Source: Escherichia phage EPIMRB01
DNA: 64,000 bases
Sequence record: PQ657784
Direction: 5' to 3' (one strand)
Of this stretch, positions 24,445 through 37,191 are shown one piece after another (the first letter of the stretch is position 1; every line of letters begins with the position of its first letter). The notes beneath the pieces are model-generated. The model was not told where the DNA came from. It searched no databases and saw nothing but the letters and a program-made list of their open reading frames with translations. The position numbers and the translations under genes are program-made.

Positions 24445-24657
24445 TCATTTTTGTCCTGTATTTACTTTATGCCGATGCACGGCCTTAACTTTATCAAGGT
24501 ATTTTTCAAAATTTCGCAATCTAGTATAGTCTGCCGGAGATTGGTTGAGTGATACTTCTCGACGCAAAGCTGAAATGATATTTCCAACTTCCCTACGAAT
24601 TTCATCTAATTGAAGCACAGTAAGATTGCGAAGTTGCTTTTCAGTTAATTGTAGCAT
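24445..24657 (-). CDS. Hypothetical protein, 70 aa
   Basis: ORF between tk and rI. Confidence 0.5.
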
Positions 24658-24699
24658 ATATACCCCTTTAGTTAGATAAACCTATTTATAACTTTTGCA

Positions 24700-25281
24700 C
24701 TAACCGAGCTTTTTAGTTAATTCGTTCCAGTGTTTTCTACACAAAGAAACATAAATTTCATCACCAATACAGATTTGATTACCTTCTTTAACTGGTGTTC
24801 CATCTTCCATTAATCGAGCTGTCATAATCGCTTTTTTGCCGCAATGACAAACTGCCTTTAGTTCAATAAGTTTATCTGCAATCGCTAAAAGTTCTTTAGA
24901 ACCTTCAAACAATTTTCCAGCGAAATCAGTCCTTAATCCATAAGCCATAACAGGAACATTATATGTATCAACAATTCGACTTAATTGATGCACCTGTTCA
25001 GTTTTTAAAAACTGAGCTTCATCTACAAATACGCAATGAATATCTTTTTGTGCTTCAGCCCATTTATAGAACTCGAAAATATCCATATCATCTGTAATAA
25101 TATTCGCTTCCTGCTTAATTCCAATGCGAGAAACAACTTCACAGACAGAATCGCGAGTATCAATAGCAGGCTTAAGAACTAATACACCCATTCCACGTTC
25201 TTTATAATTATGTGCAGCAGTCAAAAGAGAAGCAGATTTTCCAGCATTCATTGCTGCATAAGTAAAAATTAAACTCGCCAT
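24700..25281 (-). CDS. tk: Thymidine kinase
   Basis: 193 aa; P-loop MNAGKS; C-terminal Zn-binding Cys pairs typical of type II TK. Confidence 0.92.
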   Translation of the reverse strand: MASLIFTYAAMNAGKSASLLTAAHNYKERGMGVLVLKPAIDTRDSVCEVVSRIGIKQEANIITDDMDIFEFYKWAEAQKDIHCVFVDEAQFLKTEQVHQLSRIVDTYNVPVMAYGLRTDFAGKLFEGSKELLAIADKLIELKAVCHCGKKAIMTARLMEDGTPVKEGNQICIGDEIYVSLCRKHWNELTKKLG

Positions 25282-25290
25282 ATCACCTTC

Positions 25291-25476
25291 TTAAAGCGTA
25301 TTCACATAAGCTATTAATTCATTTTCTTTCTTATCAAACCGATCAGCAAATTCTTCCTGCTGTTCGGGAGATAGCGGGCCGTATTCATCATAAAAGGTGT
25401 TTGCTTCTGTATGCTCATCTAGAAGTTCATGGATAAGCTCAAACAATTTATCTTTTTGTTCTTTACTCAGACTCAT
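25291..25476 (-). CDS. Hypothetical acidic protein, 61 aa
   Basis: ORF. Confidence 0.45.
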   Translation of the reverse strand: MSLSKEQKDKLFELIHELLDEHTEANTFYDEYGPLSPEQQEEFADRFDKKENELIAYVNTL

Positions 25477-25646
25477 ATATTAATTTCCAGGAGTTTTAAA
25501 ATAATTCGCTTTTGCTTAAATATTTCCATAGTTAAATGATCAGTATCTTTTTGACCAATTCCAATGGCAAAACCTTTATTAGCAGCGAGTTCAATTAAAT
25601 TATCAAGCTCACGTAACACTTCGTATTGTAACTCAAAACTATTCAT
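25473..25646 (-). CDS. Small hypothetical protein, about 57 aa (below track cutoff)
   Basis: ATG at 25646 to TGA at 25473, read by eye; ATGA overlaps at both ends. Confidence 0.3.
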   Translation of the reverse strand: MNSFELQYEVLRELDNLIELAANKGFAIGIGQKDTDHLTMEIFKQKRIILKLLEINI

Positions 25647-25870
25647 TTTGGTTTACCTTCTTTAACGAAATCTGGATAAGGATAAAATCCCGAATAAAAT
25701 CCTTCACCTTTATGATTGATACATCCTTTATTAGAACAATAGCACCAATAATCGAAATCACAAGTCATTTCATCGTTGCATAAAGCAAAAACAACCGGCC
25801 ACTTACACTTTTCACAGTGGGCATTTTTAAGAATACTAGTTTGGCTCATAACCATGTAACCTTTAAGCAA
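25643..25870 (-). CDS. Cys-rich small protein, 75 aa (probable Zn-binding)
   Basis: Cys pattern CEKCKW...C...C...CYC...C. Confidence 0.45.
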   Translation of the reverse strand: MLKGYMVMSQTSILKNAHCEKCKWPVVFALCNDEMTCDFDYWCYCSNKGCINHKGEGFYSGFYPYPDFVKEGKPK

Positions 25871-26058
25871 TATTCTTCTACATGTTGTTTACGACCTTTC
25901 TTATCAATAAAGGTATATTCAACGAATGTTCCAATGTAGTCTTTATCTACATCATGTGGACTATTAATTGGGCATTTAGTACGGCAAATGCGTTCCCATT
26001 GACGAATAATTACTGCTTTGTTTTTAGGATCAAACGGATGTGGGTAATGTACTTTCAT
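25846..26058 (-). CDS. Hypothetical protein, 70 aa
   Basis: ORF. Confidence 0.4.
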   Translation of the reverse strand: MKVHYPHPFDPKNKAVIIRQWERICRTKCPINSPHDVDKDYIGTFVEYTFIDKKGRKQHVEEYCLKVTWL

Positions 26059-26509
26059 AATCCACCACTATTAAATCAATATCAGGAGTAAACATGTCGA
26101 TTAATTTAGAAACCTTATCCCAATCGCCGCCAGCAATACCACAACCTATACGCGGAATGTAAATTACCGGTTTAAACAAAAGGGTTTCTGCCTGTAGATT
26201 TAATTCTATCATGCAGTTTACTAAAGCACCATAATCAAGATTAGGACCTGGTTCGTATTGCGTATACAAGTTATAACATATGCCAAACCCATTAGGTTTA
26301 TGTTTAAAAACAATAGACATATCACCGAGTTTTTCACGCGAACCATATTCAGTTGTGGTCTTATCTATTTCTAAAATTTTGGGATAGGCTCTTGCTAATT
26401 GACCAGCTACACCACTGCCCATTGTATGAAAACAGTTACACCCGTGCGCAATAATATTACCTTCAAGAAAGAGGGCGACAATATCGCCCTTGATATATTT
26501 TACAATCAT
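26030..26509 (-). CDS. Macro-domain protein (ADP-ribose binding/processing fold), 159 aa
   Basis: Macro-domain motifs KGDIVAL, GSGVAGQL, PRIGCGIAGG. Confidence 0.65.
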   Translation of the reverse strand: MIVKYIKGDIVALFLEGNIIAHGCNCFHTMGSGVAGQLARAYPKILEIDKTTTEYGSREKLGDMSIVFKHKPNGFGICYNLYTQYEPGPNLDYGALVNCMIELNLQAETLLFKPVIYIPRIGCGIAGGDWDKVSKLIDMFTPDIDLIVVDYESTLPTSV

Positions 26510-26853
26510 CTAGTACTCAATCCTCGATTATAAGAATCTACTAAACGGTCAACCATTGAATGACAAGCGGCTTTATCTTTTTCCTCCGCAACTGAACATT
26601 CTAGGGTATTCCACTTTTTAGCATATCGTTTTAATAATGTATCGTTTTTGTATCTGCTTGATTTATCTCTTTCTCCGTCTTTATATGCATATATTAATTT
26701 CTGCGCAAATTCAGCTTGGCATGCTTTATTTTTCCCACAATAATCTGCCGCAGTGCGGTTCACATACTCCCTAATTTCAGTATATGATGTATCTGCTGAC
26801 GCATAAGCAGAAAATGAAATTAATCCTATACATAAAACCAAAATTTTAGTCAT
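26506..26853 (-). CDS. Secreted hypothetical protein, 115 aa (in the position of T4 vs)
   Basis: N-terminal signal peptide MTKILVLCIGLISFSAYASA; identity with Vs not verified. Confidence 0.5.
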   Translation of the reverse strand: MTKILVLCIGLISFSAYASADTSYTEIREYVNRTAADYCGKNKACQAEFAQKLIYAYKDGERDKSSRYKNDTLLKRYAKKWNTLECSVAEEKDKAACHSMVDRLVDSYNRGLSTR

Positions 26854-27391
26854 TTACTATTTCCAAAAGTTTATTATTTTTAAGGTAATTAGCCTTTTCT
26901 AGGACTTCAGAAGCATATTTAGAACCTGCTTTAACATTCCATCCCGAATTATAAGAGGATATTGCTTTTCTTATATCGCCCTTATGTATATTTAACCAAT
27001 AAGAAAGTTCAATGTACGCCCAGGAAGCTGAATTGGATCGTTTATTCAACATTCTTTTTATTTCAGCATCGGTCATATTATAACCAAGTTCCTTAACTCT
27101 CGCTCGCATAGTAGGCAAATAATTTTGGAACATTCCGTAAGCATGATGTTTTGGTTTAGATTTTAAATTAACTCCGCCAGAGCTTTCTTGCCATAAAATA
27201 GCAGCCATTATATGACCTAATCCGCTCTTGTGGATATTTTTGTGTGTTTTATATTTTCCATCCTTAGAAAATTGTTCCCCGAATTGATACGCGTAACGCA
27301 TGTTATCGAGTTGGACATTACTGAAAGTATGCTCGGAGCTATGTGCCATCATTGAAATGGCCAATAGACCAGCGAGTAGTGCTTTTCTCAT
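26846..27391 (-). CDS. Secreted lytic-transglycosylase-like protein, 181 aa
   Basis: Signal peptide; SLT-like motifs LWQESSGG, GMFQ, SYNSGW. Confidence 0.6.
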   Translation of the reverse strand: MRKALLAGLLAISMMAHSSEHTFSNVQLDNMRYAYQFGEQFSKDGKYKTHKNIHKSGLGHIMAAILWQESSGGVNLKSKPKHHAYGMFQNYLPTMRARVKELGYNMTDAEIKRMLNKRSNSASWAYIELSYWLNIHKGDIRKAISSYNSGWNVKAGSKYASEVLEKANYLKNNKLLEIVND

Positions 27392-27398
27392 GTTTACC

Positions 27399-27860
27399 TC
27401 ATTGAGTTTTAATTACTGCTTTAGAAGCCTTTCCTGGTAAACGACGACTGTTGATAATTGCCATCCTACATTGAAGTGACGGGTCTTTGAACTTCTCATT
27501 AGGTTTACAAACTGTAAATCCAAGCCAAAGATTTCCATCTGTAATTTCTAAACGTCCAGGACGATATTCAACTCCATCAATAAAATCCTCATCAATGTCA
27601 GGACGCGGAGGCATACTCAGGAATTCATTAACTTCTAAAACATGGTCTTTTATTTTATGGAATAATTCAAAAACATATGTCTCATCAATCTCCCGTTGAA
27701 TTGCACGATCAAGAAGATGTTGAGAATATTTTAGATGAAACGATGAGACCCCTGCTGCTTTTGATGCCTCACGAATCTCATTGTTAATTTGACGAAACTC
27801 CGACTCAAAGTGACGACGAAGCTTATTTCGACGGATAAAAACTTCTGTATTGATAGTCAT
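27399..27860 (-). CDS. regB: Sequence-specific endoribonuclease RegB
   Basis: 153 aa; sequence MTINTEVFIRRNKLRRHFESEF matches T4 RegB as recalled; preceded by an early promoter. Confidence 0.88.
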   Translation of the reverse strand: MTINTEVFIRRNKLRRHFESEFRQINNEIREASKAAGVSSFHLKYSQHLLDRAIQREIDETYVFELFHKIKDHVLEVNEFLSMPPRPDIDEDFIDGVEYRPGRLEITDGNLWLGFTVCKPNEKFKDPSLQCRMAIINSRRLPGKASKAVIKTQ

Positions 27861-27888
27861 GTTATTCTCCTCTTAACTGATAGAAAAA

Positions 27889-27925
27889 TTATACCACAGT
27901 CAAGAGGAAAAGTAAACAGTTATTC
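27889..27925 (-). promoter_or_regulatory. T4-type early promoter for regB (GTTTAC-N17-TGGTATAAT)
   Basis: Reverse complement reads CTGTTTACTTTTCCTCTTGACTGTGGTATAAT. Confidence 0.6.
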
Positions 27926-28198
27926 TTTAAATCTAGTCAATTTATTCATAGACTTTGAAACTTCTGCACGAACCTCATGTAGATTTTTGAGCTGTTCAAG
28001 ACGCTGCGTATAGTAAGCAATTTCATCTTCTTCGAGACAGTCCTGTGAATCTTCTTTAAGATAACGTGCATAGTCCTGAAAAGCGTTACGAACTACTTCC
28101 TGGAAATCATCAAGACTTTGAATTTTCTTAGGAGCAGCAGATACACGACGAGGGGCAGTATAATACTCATAACCAAACCCTGCGCTTAATTGAGCCAT
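27920..28198 (-). CDS. Hypothetical protein, about 92 aa
   Basis: ORF trimmed to the Met giving an ATGA junction with the upstream gene. Confidence 0.45.
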
Positions 28199-28464
28199 TA
28201 GTATTTTTCCTCTGGTTGGAACACTGCACGACAAGCCCACATACTGGCTTCTTTGAGTTTCGTTTTAGCAATAGTTAACTGATCGAGGCTTTCAGCATAA
28301 TTCTTCGCGAGTTCATCGTCTTCACAGCTATCAAATGCTTCCCAAAATTCATCGTATAAAGCATCAAAGATAAGTCCTAAACGAACTTCAGCGTCTTTGA
28401 TAGCATTCACTTTACCGATTTTCTCTTCGGTATGCGGCTTATAACCCTTAATATCTTCAATCAT
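28198..28464 (-). CDS. Hypothetical protein, about 88 aa
   Basis: ORF trimmed to the Met with a GAGGAAG RBS. Confidence 0.45.
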
Positions 28465-28678
28465 ATTTGACTTCCTCACCAGTACATAAATCATATTCAA
28501 CTAAACGAATAGGTTCATGAATGCCATATCCCTGAACAGAAATTTCTGTCGTAGGATAAATTCCATCAATATCACCCATATTCCAGGCTTCATTAAATTG
28601 CTGTTCGCCTGAATTACTAAACCACTCGGCGAAAGCATTTAGCACATCTTCAGAACCTTCAATAATTATCTTTGCCAT
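28457..28678 (-). CDS. Hypothetical protein, 73 aa
   Basis: ORF. Confidence 0.45.
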   Translation of the reverse strand: MAKIIIEGSEDVLNAFAEWFSNSGEQQFNEAWNMGDIDGIYPTTEISVQGYGIHEPIRLVEYDLCTGEEVKYD

Positions 28679-29040
28679 TACAAACTCTCGGTGAAGGTAC
28701 GAGCGATAACGTCGCGCTGCTGTTCCGGAGTCAGAGAGTTAAAGCGAACTGCATAACCTGATACACGGATGGTCAGCTGCGGATATTTTTCCGGATGCTT
28801 AACTGCATCTTCCAGAGTTTCACGACGCAGAACGTTAACGTTCAGGTGTTGACCACCTTCAATTTTAACTGTAGGTTGTGTTTCAATTTCAATTTCACGG
28901 GCATGCAAACCGTAGAAAATTTCCGGGTCTACAAAAGAGTCCTCTTTAAAGGTTTTAGAGACAATAATTCGTGCTTGAATACCATCTTCAAAATAAATAG
29001 TACCTTTATGTGTGCCTTCAAGAATTTGATATGCTTTCAT
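28678..29040 (-). CDS. Autonomous glycyl-radical cofactor-like protein (GrcA/YfiD-like)
   Basis: 120 aa; C-terminal glycyl-radical motif RVSGYAVRF as in GrcA and the C-termini of PFL/NrdD. Confidence 0.75.
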
Positions 29041-29047
29041 ATAAACC

Positions 29048-29377
29048 TCAATTAGAAAATAAATTTATCCAAGATTGTTCTTTAATTAAAAATGGCTCAG
29101 AATCATATGCCATTAAACTTTGGGTGATTAGTCCTTTAAAAGGTCCATCAATAAATTCCATGGTAAAATATGGAATTTTATTCATTAACTGTGCGTTAGG
29201 AGCAGTGCACAAAACTCTGCATCCTTTGAATACACCCTTTTGTAATTTGTATTGCTTGGGATAAAATTCGCTCAAAATGTTATTATTTGCTAAAATTTCA
29301 AAATGATTCACCAATTTATTTTTAATAGTTTTTGGTGAAAAATAAAGATATTCGAAAAGCTGTGTGTCTGTCATCAT
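29048..29377 (-). CDS. Hypothetical protein, 109 aa
   Basis: ORF. Confidence 0.45.
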
Positions 29378-36363: not shown

Positions 36364-36439
36364 TGGTCGAGGCAGTAGGGATCGAACCTACGACCTAGGA
36401 CTTAGAAGGTCCTTGCTCTTCCTTCTGAGCTATGCCTCG
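36364..36439 (-). tRNA. tRNA-Arg (anticodon UCU)
   Basis: Cloverleaf folded by eye: 7-bp acceptor, D-stem GCTC/GAGC, anticodon loop CTTCTAA, T-loop TTCGATC, encoded CCA. Confidence 0.8.
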
Positions 36440-36443
36440 GATT

Positions 36444-36518
36444 TGGCGGACGTGATAGGATTCGAACCTATAACCAATCGCTTAACAGGCGATCGCTCTG
36501 CCATTGAGCTACACATCC
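36444..36518 (-). tRNA. tRNA-Asn (anticodon GUU)
   Basis: Acceptor GGATGTG/CACGTCC, D-arm AGCTCAATGGCAGAGC, anticodon loop CTGTTAA, T-arm, CCA. Confidence 0.7.
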
Positions 36519-36522
36519 AAAT

Positions 36523-36609
36523 TGGTGGGGAGTGATGGAGTCGAACCACCCGAGTCGCAATGACAATGAATTTACAGTCCACACCGCTACCTCTACGGGA
36601 TAACTCCCC
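36523..36609 (-). tRNA. tRNA-Tyr (anticodon GUA), long variable arm; D-arm non-canonical
   Basis: Perfect acceptor GGGGAGT/ACTCCCC, anticodon loop CTGTAAA, T-arm GGTGG-TTCGACT-CCATC, CCA; D-stem pairs only weakly. Confidence 0.6.
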
Positions 36610-36618
36610 AAATTAATT

Positions 36619-36693
36619 TGGTGGCCCTGGGTGGAATTGAACCACCATCTGGCGATTATGAGTCGCTTGCTTGAACCTTCCAGCTACAGGGCC
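36619..36693 (-). tRNA. tRNA with CAU anticodon (tRNA-Ile2-like; Met not excluded)
   Basis: Acceptor GGCCCTG/CAGGGCC, anticodon loop CTCATAA, T-arm, CCA. Confidence 0.7.
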
Positions 36694-36694
36694 T

Positions 36695-36770
36695 TGGTGC
36701 TGATTGACGGAATCGAACCGCCGACCTTCTCATTACAAGTGAGTTGCTCTTCCTTCTGAGCTAAATCAGC
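36695..36770 (-). tRNA. tRNA-Thr (anticodon UGU)
   Basis: Acceptor GCTGATT/AATCAGC, D-arm AGCTCAGAAGG, anticodon loop CTTGTAA, T-arm, CCA. Confidence 0.8.
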
Positions 36771-36775
36771 AAAGC

Positions 36776-36865
36776 TGGCGGAGGCGATAGGATTTGAACC
36801 TATGAGTCGCCGGAGCGACTGCCGGTTTTCAAGACCGGTGCATTAAACCACTCTGCCACGCCTCC
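36776..36865 (-). tRNA. tRNA-Ser (anticodon UGA), long variable arm
   Basis: Acceptor GGAGGCG/CGCCTCC, anticodon loop CTTGAAA, long extra arm, T-arm GGTTCAAATCC. Confidence 0.8.
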
Positions 36866-36867
36866 AG

Positions 36868-36941
36868 TCTCCATACAAGGATTTGAACCTTGGACCTCCT
36901 GATCCCAAATCAGGCGCTCTACCAAACTGAGCTACACGGAG
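36868..36941 (-). tRNA. tRNA-Pro (anticodon UGG), CCA not encoded
   Basis: D-arm AGCTCAGTTTGGTAGAGC, anticodon loop TTTGGGA, T-arm GGTTCAAATCC; acceptor includes G-U pairs. Confidence 0.7.
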
Positions 36942-36951
36942 TAAATTAAAT

Positions 36952-37025
<74 letters not shown>

Positions 37026-37030
37026 AAATT

Positions 37031-37119
37031 TGGTGCGAGAAGTGGGACTCGAACCCACAAGGAAATCATTCCGCAGCATTTTAAGTGCTGTGCCTTTACC
37101 AATTTGACCATTCTCGCGC
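37031..37119 (-). tRNA. tRNA-Leu (anticodon UAA), long variable arm
   Basis: Acceptor GCGCGAG/CTCGCAC, anticodon loop CTTAAAA, long extra arm, T-arm GGTTCGAGTCC, CCA. Confidence 0.8.
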
Positions 37120-37191
37120 TGGGAATAAAGGACTTGAACCTTTGCATCCTGGAATCAAAATCCAGTGCCTTACCAACTTGGCTAATTCCCA
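37120..37191 (-). tRNA. tRNA-Gln (anticodon UUG), CCA not encoded
   Basis: Acceptor TGGGAAT/ATTCCCA, anticodon loop TTTTGAT, T-arm GGTTCAAGTCC. Confidence 0.75.

Follow-up and report, generated by a model that had tools for sequence, protein, structure and literature searches.

In a 64,000-nucleotide (nt) stretch of Escherichia phage EPIMRB01 (sequence record PQ657784; hereafter the window), the gene located between vs and tk.3 is an orthologue of the phage T4 gene tk.4, recently renamed adfM, and it encodes a macro domain that stands alone and belongs to the ALC1/TARG1-like class. Our comparative analysis points to an active site in which the catalytic lysine of the antitoxin DarG and of TARG1 has given way to an invariant glutamine (Q84), as in the bacterial macrodomains SCO6735 and BT1257, and suggests that the window allele probably cancels the action of the host toxin DarT2 via glutamine-assisted hydrolysis of thymidine-linked ADP-ribose. 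The locus itself is already known, as a macro/A1pp annotation is present in the T4 record and a counter-defence role was reported in 2025; the remaining points, addressed below, are the Gln-for-Lys active site, the use of one name for two phage lineages, and the cassette-like exchange of alleles.

A glutamine-type macrodomain at the tk.4 locus

The original prediction, made from the DNA letters, had placed a phage macro-domain protein at 26030-26509. These positions coincide exactly with an open reading frame (ORF) in the ORF listing of the window (159 amino acids (aa), ATG start), which lies on the minus strand, a detail absent from the prediction; all three motifs that it quoted are present in the translation (KGDIVAL, residues 7-13; GSGVAGQL, residues 31-38; PRIGCGIAGG, residues 119-128). 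Profile searches, which had been named as the way to challenge this assignment, place the protein in the macro superfamily by sequence, as does its predicted fold. The Pfam profile PF01661 (Macro) is matched over positions 2-117 of 118 with an E value of 2.4e-8 (34.4 bits, gathering cutoff 22), and PHROG 335 with an E value of 1.7e-71. Used as a single sequence, the protein retrieves the solved macrodomains BT1257 (1e-10), Poa1p (2e-9), SCO6735 (9e-8), M. tuberculosis DarG (1.2e-5) and TARG1 (7e-3). A family profile, built from an alignment of 63 homologues collected from a large protein database, reaches BT1257 (1e-20), TARG1 (5e-17), SCO6735 (2e-16) and Poa1p (2.5e-15) among the PDB sequences, as well as DarG (1.6e-11 and 2.9e-10) and the SARS-CoV-2 macrodomain Mac1 (4e-3).

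The AlphaFold2 model obtained from the same 63-homologue alignment (predicted local distance difference test, pLDDT, 94.5; predicted template modelling score, pTM, 0.89) has the three-layer alpha/beta/alpha architecture of the macro fold. A Foldseek comparison of this model with the PDB is led by TARG1 (E 3e-10), followed by BT1257, Poa1p and DarG. The two glycine-rich motifs correspond to the phosphate-binding loops of the macro fold and align with the respective loops of TARG1, DarG and BT1257. The nearest sequence and structural neighbours are all ALC1/TARG1-like, clearly apart from the MacroD-type and viral macrodomains. It follows from the Foldseek ranking and the family-profile matches in the PDB that the Tk.4-type protein is an ALC1/TARG1-like macro domain that stands on its own; binding of ADP-ribose is a prediction from sequence and fold.

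The orthology with T4 tk.4/adfM is established by position and full-length homology, because the gene sits between vs and tk.3 as in T4, on the strand of the early genes, and its product can be aligned with T4 Tk.4 over 155 aa at 58% identity, with no gaps (E 5e-70). The comparison with the T4 tk.x genes, recommended in the original prediction, thus led to a specific member of the series, as the window gene occupies the tk.4 position. The T4 record has tk.4 between tk.3 and vs, with the annotation 'phosphatase; contains A1pp phosphatase motif', and phage RB3 has the same arrangement with the gene labelled tk.4. At the DNA level, the 5 kb around the gene match Escherichia phage AUBRB02 with 100% identity, and nearly five hundred Tequatrovirus (T4-like) phages with 95-99%.

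Experimental information on this locus comes from T4. In a recent preprint (HIDEN-SEQ, Nov 2025, 10.1101/2025.11.20.689424), tk.4 was the single significant hit when a T4 transposon library was challenged on cells expressing the toxin-antitoxin system DarTG2, and a clean tk.4 knock-out sensitised T4 to DarTG2. The same study renamed the gene adfM (for anti-DarT factor, macrodomain) and proposed, by analogy with DarG, that its product removes ADP-ribose from DNA (10.1101/2025.11.20.689424). Such an additional factor had been expected, because earlier work had found that T4 lacking adfA and adfN stays resistant to DarTG2. The window gene and T4 tk.4 have in common their locus between vs and tk.3, their direction, the domain and a similar length; the N-terminal 38 residues of the two proteins are almost identical, and both contain H22, N25, Q84 and the glycine loops. 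On the other hand, the second phosphate loop reads GCGIAGGDW in the window allele and GAGIGKGNW in T4, the window protein is longer by four residues at its C-terminus, and in T4 the gene overlaps tk.3 by only 4 nt (compare Table 1). The anti-DarTG2 phenotype belongs to the T4 allele, and the window allele represents a separate allele class.

Invariance was counted in the 63-member alignment, where H22, G23, N25, C26, G33, A35, N80, Y82, Q84, P119, G122, G124 and W130 are identical in all sequences. In the first glycine-rich loop, neither G31 nor G33 varies among the Tk.4 family, TARG1, DarG, BT1257 and the phage PhiKZ macrodomain gp104 (also named AdfM; see below). The H-G-C-N motif of the Tk.4 family aligns with H24-V25-C26-N27 of SCO6735 and with H-I-C-N of BT1257, and N25 aligns with N23 of the PhiKZ protein. 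The profile alignment to human TARG1 (OARD1) is gap-free through the catalytic strand and sets Q84 opposite K84 and A126 opposite D125, so that the Lys84/Asp125 dyad of TARG1 is matched by Gln84/Ala126 in the window protein. MAFFT likewise sets T83-Q84 opposite the T-K pair of TARG1, of both DarGs and of PhiKZ gp104. MAFFT misplaced BT1257 near the catalytic Gln, and hidden Markov model (HMM) alignments were used there instead; in these, Q84 pairs with the Gln of the BT1257 segment 'ANMIGQHG', and this 'MIGQ' Gln is in turn the counterpart of SCO6735 Q85. The residue numbering of SCO6735 was checked against its published mutants, and the TARG1 query sequence was verified to be identical to PDB 2LGR. 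The loop from Q84 to the conserved Tyr is 8 residues long in the Tk.4 family, the same length as in TARG1, compared with 14 in BT1257 and 11 in most of the bacterial relatives described below. According to these alignments, the active site of the Tk.4 family is not DarG-like, with the invariant Q84 replacing the catalytic lysine as in SCO6735 and BT1257. By analogy with SCO6735, Q84 probably takes part in catalysis.

This analogy is supported by the biochemistry reported for SCO6735 from Streptomyces coelicolor, which lacks the Lys of DarG and TARG1 and yet strips ADP-ribose from DarT-modified thymidine faster than either of them. It rescues cells from DarT, its Q85A mutant is dead, and H24 and N27 are located in the active site; in the published scheme, the Gln positions the distal ribose, its amide being proposed to contact the ring oxygen of that ribose, with a role for V25 proposed via its backbone oxygen. 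The DNA groove of SCO6735 has also been described as strongly electropositive, and the protein has an extended, lysine-bearing mobile loop, ~5 residues longer than in DarG and TARG1. SCO6735 was reported to act neither on RNA ADP-ribosylated at the 2'-OH nor on ADP-ribosylated 5'-phosphates, which may be taken as a mild argument against an RNA role of the Gln-type enzymes. The Tk.4 family shares with SCO6735 and with BT1257 from Bacteroides, both Gln-type and ALC1/TARG1-like, the Gln in place of Lys and the H-x-C-N motif (H22 = H24, N25 = N27). Unlike these two proteins, it has an invariant Gly23 in place of Val/Ile25 and a shorter post-Gln loop, and the window protein is acidic (isoelectric point, pI, ~5.1) and not basic.

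The top match of the window protein in both NCBIfam and PADLOC is the macro part of DarG, the antitoxin of DarTG2. The score against the DarG family NF048014 is 28.1 bits compared with a cutoff of 250, and the match covers the macro part only (positions 2-142 of 338). In DarG (T. aquaticus, M. tuberculosis), the catalytic residue is Lys80, where the window protein has Gln84; the window protein also lacks the C-terminal DarT-binding domain of DarG, and there is no adjacent darT, the neighbours being vs and tk.3. As the DarT-binding domain, the catalytic lysine and a darT neighbour are all missing, the Tk.4-type protein is not a DarG. Transferring the DarG mechanism to the T4-type AdfM, which has a Gln at the catalytic-Lys position, would thus give an incorrect picture in its details.

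The name AdfM has also been given to PhiKZ gp104, a stand-alone phage macrodomain that counters DarTG2 and is imported into the phage nucleus (Cell Rep 2026, PMC13309987). In vitro, gp104 strips a DarT2-modified TNTC oligonucleotide of its ADP-ribose, an activity that the N23A substitution lowers (PMC13309987). In contrast to the Tk.4 family, gp104 is of the DarG type: it keeps the lysine in an FPTK motif and matches M. tuberculosis DarG with an E value of 9e-25, while its identity to the Tk.4 family is 22% (hhalign probability 95.8%). The sequence comparison thus indicates that AdfM is one name for two non-orthologous phage macrodomain lineages, a Gln type (T4 Tk.4) and a DarG type (PhiKZ gp104), the support being genetic for the former and biochemical for the latter. 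Human TARG1, which has the same loop length as the window protein, also removes DarT-made ADP-ribose from thymidine. Among other T4 factors, AdfN (gene 30.3, a NADAR protein) is likewise an anti-DarT, orphan antitoxin-like enzyme of unrelated fold, which targets guanine-linked ADP-ribose made by DarT1 and not DarTG2 damage; AdfA and AdfB, the latter a 77-aa DarT binder, counter DarT toxins as well.

The nearest cellular counterparts were sought by scanning one genome per species, which yielded at least 497 chromosomal relatives; the 80 that were fetched for analysis (34-43% identity) come from Ruegeria, Hyphomicrobiaceae, Desulfobacter, Verrucomicrobia and others. Q84 is kept in 79 of these 80 proteins, a count that is informative because this residue was outside the search pattern. 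Within 4 kb of the 80 loci, tblastn with P. aeruginosa DarT2 found no DarT2 homologue (best chance match E 2.2), and none of the 131 flanking ORFs scanned with Pfam matched DUF4433 (DarT family). Housekeeping genes of various kinds lie next to these relatives, which are stand-alone genes and not antitoxins, like SCO6735 and BT1257. A direct descent of the Tk.4 lineage from a toxin-antitoxin operon is unsupported, as no DarT stands beside any of the 80 bacterial loci. As a side observation, the flanks include NAPRTase at 3 loci, NAMPT_N at 2 and Exo_endo_phos nucleases at 5, too few to speak of an association.

A diverged allele in a T4-like background

The divergence from T4 is confined to a sharply bounded segment. 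The proteins encoded by vs, vs.1, tk.3 and tk are 96-100% identical to their T4 counterparts. At the DNA level, the identity to T4 is 97-100% up to approximately codon 10 of tk.4, 40-70% through the gene, and 87-100% from ~26040 downward, where tk.3 starts; the flanks of tk.4 are 97-100% identical. Synonymous divergence (dS) is ~1.8, near saturation, in tk.4 compared with 0.05-0.43 in the flanking genes, and the ratio of nonsynonymous to synonymous divergence (dN/dS) between the two tk.4 alleles is ~0.21, a value that indicates purifying selection on the gene. Accelerated evolution in place was considered as the source of the 58% identity and rejected, given that dS is also as high as ~1.8 and dN/dS is ~0.21. 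Because near-saturated dS is confined to tk.4, the flanks are near-identical and dN/dS is low, the window tk.4 is, on these comparisons, an old, functionally constrained allele recombined into a T4-like genome.

This allele, carried for example by RB3 and AUBRB02, is a common one: 318 phage records contain the window type at 90% identity or more, while the T4 type is found in 224 records at 90% or more and in 159 at 80-90%. Further tk.4 allele classes, at 60-90% identity, coexist in phage records. When compared with a profile of the 80 bacterial relatives, the window allele scores 157 bits and the T4 allele 146 bits; this slightly better fit, together with the dN/dS of ~0.21, is the reason why the window allele looks intact.

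A second diverged segment lies nearby. The tk.1/tk.2 segment has only 15-48% DNA identity to T4, with tk and tk.3 on either side at ~97-100% (wider stretch 25290..25860). Between tk.2 and tk.3 there is a cysteine-rich 68-aa ORF (25643..25849, minus strand; Pfam PF23895, Phage_zn_bind, E 1.9e-29), and T4 has no gene at this place.

Proposed function and competing explanations

We consider it likely that the window allele cancels DarT2. This reading draws on the T4 tk.4 genetics, the orthologous position, the SCO6735-like active site, the PhiKZ gp104 precedent and the macro part of DarG as the best match in the defence libraries. According to the mechanism we propose, the packed regB-vs-tk.4-tk gene run would supply the Tk.4 protein ahead of phage DNA replication or in its course; expression of tk.4 is probably early, judging from the orientation and packing of the gene among early genes. 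The protein would bind ADP-ribose on thymidine in single-stranded DNA, the lesion introduced by the host DarT2 of DarTG2, and hydrolyse the ribose-base bond, which would restore replicable DNA. With no catalytic lysine, catalysis would probably be SCO6735-like and not DarG/TARG1-like: Q84 would position the distal ribose, and the H22-x-x-N25 motif together with both glycine-rich loops would assist. An enzymatic activity of the window protein is thus suggested by analogy. Several points weigh against this scheme. The support from T4 Tk.4 is genetic and comes from a preprint; the window allele and the genetically tested T4 protein have different residues at 42% of positions, the second phosphate loop included; two features linked to the DNA function of SCO6735, the lysine-bearing extended mobile loop and Val/Ile at the V25 position, are missing from the window protein; and its acidity is at odds with the electropositive DNA groove of SCO6735.

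An unlikely alternative is that the window allele has another specificity than the T4 allele, acting on a different ADP-ribosyl-nucleic-acid linkage or against a different DarT variant, so that allele swaps would match host toxins. The sharp boundaries of the cassette (58% aa identity and dS ~1.8, next to flanks at 97-100% with dS 0.05-0.43), the coexistence of several allele classes and the documented allele-specific activity of AdfA and AdfB speak for it. On the other hand, the candidate catalytic and ligand-binding residues are all common to both alleles, the dN/dS is that of purifying and not of diversifying selection, small early genes of this region are commonly replaced in mosaic fashion (e.g. 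tk.1/tk.2), and, as has been argued for AdfN, an enzyme directed at the lesion and not at the toxin has no need to follow changes in the toxin. Small-molecule metabolism as the main role, either as a Poa1p-like ADP-ribose-1''-phosphate (Appr-1''-p) phosphatase, in line with the historical 'phosphatase/A1pp' label, or as an O-acetyl-ADP-ribose deacetylase, appears improbable. The likeness of the window protein to Poa1p is one of sequence and fold, the phosphatase/A1pp labels are transferred names and not assays, and the sole phenotype known for the orthologue is DarTG2 sensitivity. Moreover, such activities are frequent side activities of macrodomains, and we know of no phage pathway that makes Appr-1''-p.

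It is also conceivable, if very improbable, that protection is mainly non-catalytic, by binding and blocking DarT2 or by shielding ADP-ribosylated DNA. The catalytically dead variants SCO6735 Q85A, DarG K80A and TARG1 K84A do inhibit DarT in vitro, SCO6735 being the strongest, and AdfB acts purely via DarT binding. However, the window protein corresponds only to positions 2-142 of the 338-position DarG model and lacks the C-terminal DarT-binding domain; in addition, Q84, H22, N25 and the two phosphate loops are strictly conserved in the phage proteins and also in bacterial relatives without DarT beside them, which speaks for an enzyme. Finally, the original prediction had offered several functions, of which the reversal of ADP-ribosylation made by a defence system agrees with the DarTG2 sensitivity of the T4 tk.4 knock-out; the degradation of ADP-ribose-derived signals is unsupported, as is the erasing of Alt, ModA or ModB marks. 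A role in erasing or reading the phage's own marks, i.e. arginine ADP-ribosylation by Alt/ModA/ModB or RNAylation by ModB, is in our view scarcely credible: the argument for it, that T-even phages encode these transferases, is circumstantial, and the stand-alone bacterial relatives are found in genomes without phage transferases. To our knowledge, hydrolases of the ALC1/TARG1-like macro class have been described on Asp/Glu esters and on thymidine, and not on arginine N-glycosides.

Returning to DarT2 cancellation as the preferred function, a broader conjecture, which we offer tentatively and hold to be rather doubtful in its full form, would be that the T-even Tk.4/AdfM proteins are a separate group of lysine-free, Gln-type thymidine de-ADP-ribosylases that derive from stand-alone bacterial genome-protecting macrodomains and not from a captured DarG, and that the recombining old alleles differ in the lesions or DarT variants they neutralise.

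Locus organisation and significance

The coordinates of the gene, its active-site elements and its immediate neighbours are collected in Table 1. The genes follow each other on one strand in the order rI.-1, rI, rI.1, tk, tk.1, tk.2, the small zinc-binding ORF, tk.3, tk.4, vs, vs.1, regB, and vs.3 onward, and tk.4 is part of a tightly packed co-directional run, with overlaps at both of its ends.

Table 1. Positions of the tk.4 gene, its sequence elements and its flanking genes in the window
Feature	Position	Strand	Details
tk.4/adfM-type gene, stand-alone macro-domain protein	26030..26509	-	159 aa
ATGA overlap of vs stop codon and tk.4 start codon (translational coupling)	26506..26509	-	ORF coordinates and sequence
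Overlap of tk.4 3' end with tk.3 start, 29 nt; right-hand edge of diverged cassette	26030..26058	-	
vs (valyl-tRNA synthetase modifier), upstream neighbour, co-directional	26506..26853	-	PHROG 1256, E 1.4e-39; 99% aa identity to T4
tk.3 (DUF7202), downstream neighbour	25846..26058	-	Pfam PF23832, E 8e-39; 96% aa identity to T4
H-G-C-N-C active-site motif, codons 22-26 (H22, N25)	26432..26446	-	H22, G23, N25, C26 invariant in 63 members
MGSGVAG, first glycine-rich phosphate-binding loop, codons 30-36	26402..26422	-	
Gln84 (CAA), codon 84, at catalytic-Lys position of TARG1 (K84)/DarG (K80)	26258..26260	-	Invariant in 63 members
PRIGCGIAGGDW, second phosphate-binding loop, codons 119-130	26120..26155	-	P119, G122, G124, W130 invariant

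A scan for sigma-70 promoters and terminators over 24500..29200 gave counts not above those of shuffled controls, and because the sigma-70 counts did not exceed the controls we make no promoter claim for the tk.4 region. A match to the MotA-box pattern of middle promoters (TGCTTTA, 12 nt, TAGAAT) is located inside the tk.4 coding sequence (26228..26203, minus strand); if used, it would drive tk.3-tk from inside tk.4. The T4 sequence at this site reads CGCTTTA. Across the window there are 16 matches to this pattern compared with 4.6 expected, and 12 of the 16 are on the minus strand. Codons 7-13 of tk.4 contain a perfect 8-bp hairpin (AGGGCGAT / ATT / GTCGCCCT; 26490..26472, minus strand), in a stretch that is 100% identical to T4 and directly precedes the divergence of the alleles. 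A regulatory role of this hairpin was rejected, as its local fold z-score of -1.68 is not significant; it may be incidental to the codons of KGDIVAL.

Other features of the window are mentioned for completeness. The vs.4 gene (28198..28464, minus strand) matches PDB 7UQ2, 'Vs.4' (E 1.7e-53), which we take to be a cyclic-oligonucleotide sponge countering the cyclic-oligonucleotide-based anti-phage signalling system (CBASS). Based on the identity of vs.4, tk.4 appears to belong to a series of small early genes in which several counter-defence functions are gathered, with ipI and 57B further along the RB3 map. The product of vs.1 (26846..27391, minus strand; 181 aa), hypothetical in the T4 record, begins with a hydrophobic segment resembling a signal peptide and contains a lytic-transglycosylase domain of the SLT type (Pfam PF01464, E 1.4e-5). 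At 36364..37191 (minus strand), an uninterrupted array of ten tRNA genes (Arg, Asn, Tyr, Met-CAT, Thr, Ser, Pro, Gly, Leu and Gln), nine of them confirmed by Rfam, is the same set as in RB3; T4 has eight, without Asn and Tyr, and the CAT tRNA is probably a lysidine-modified Ile species.

DarTG systems halt phage replication by ADP-ribosylating DNA, and phage genes that undo this damage help to explain host range; knowing them helps in the choice and engineering of therapeutic phages. For annotation, the outcome is that adfM is the identity of the locus that most T4-like genomes list as a 'hypothetical protein' or 'phosphatase' gene. The deeply diverged tk.4 alleles swapped between near-identical phages provide a natural test set for whether the range of such a hydrolase is toxin-specific or lesion-specific.
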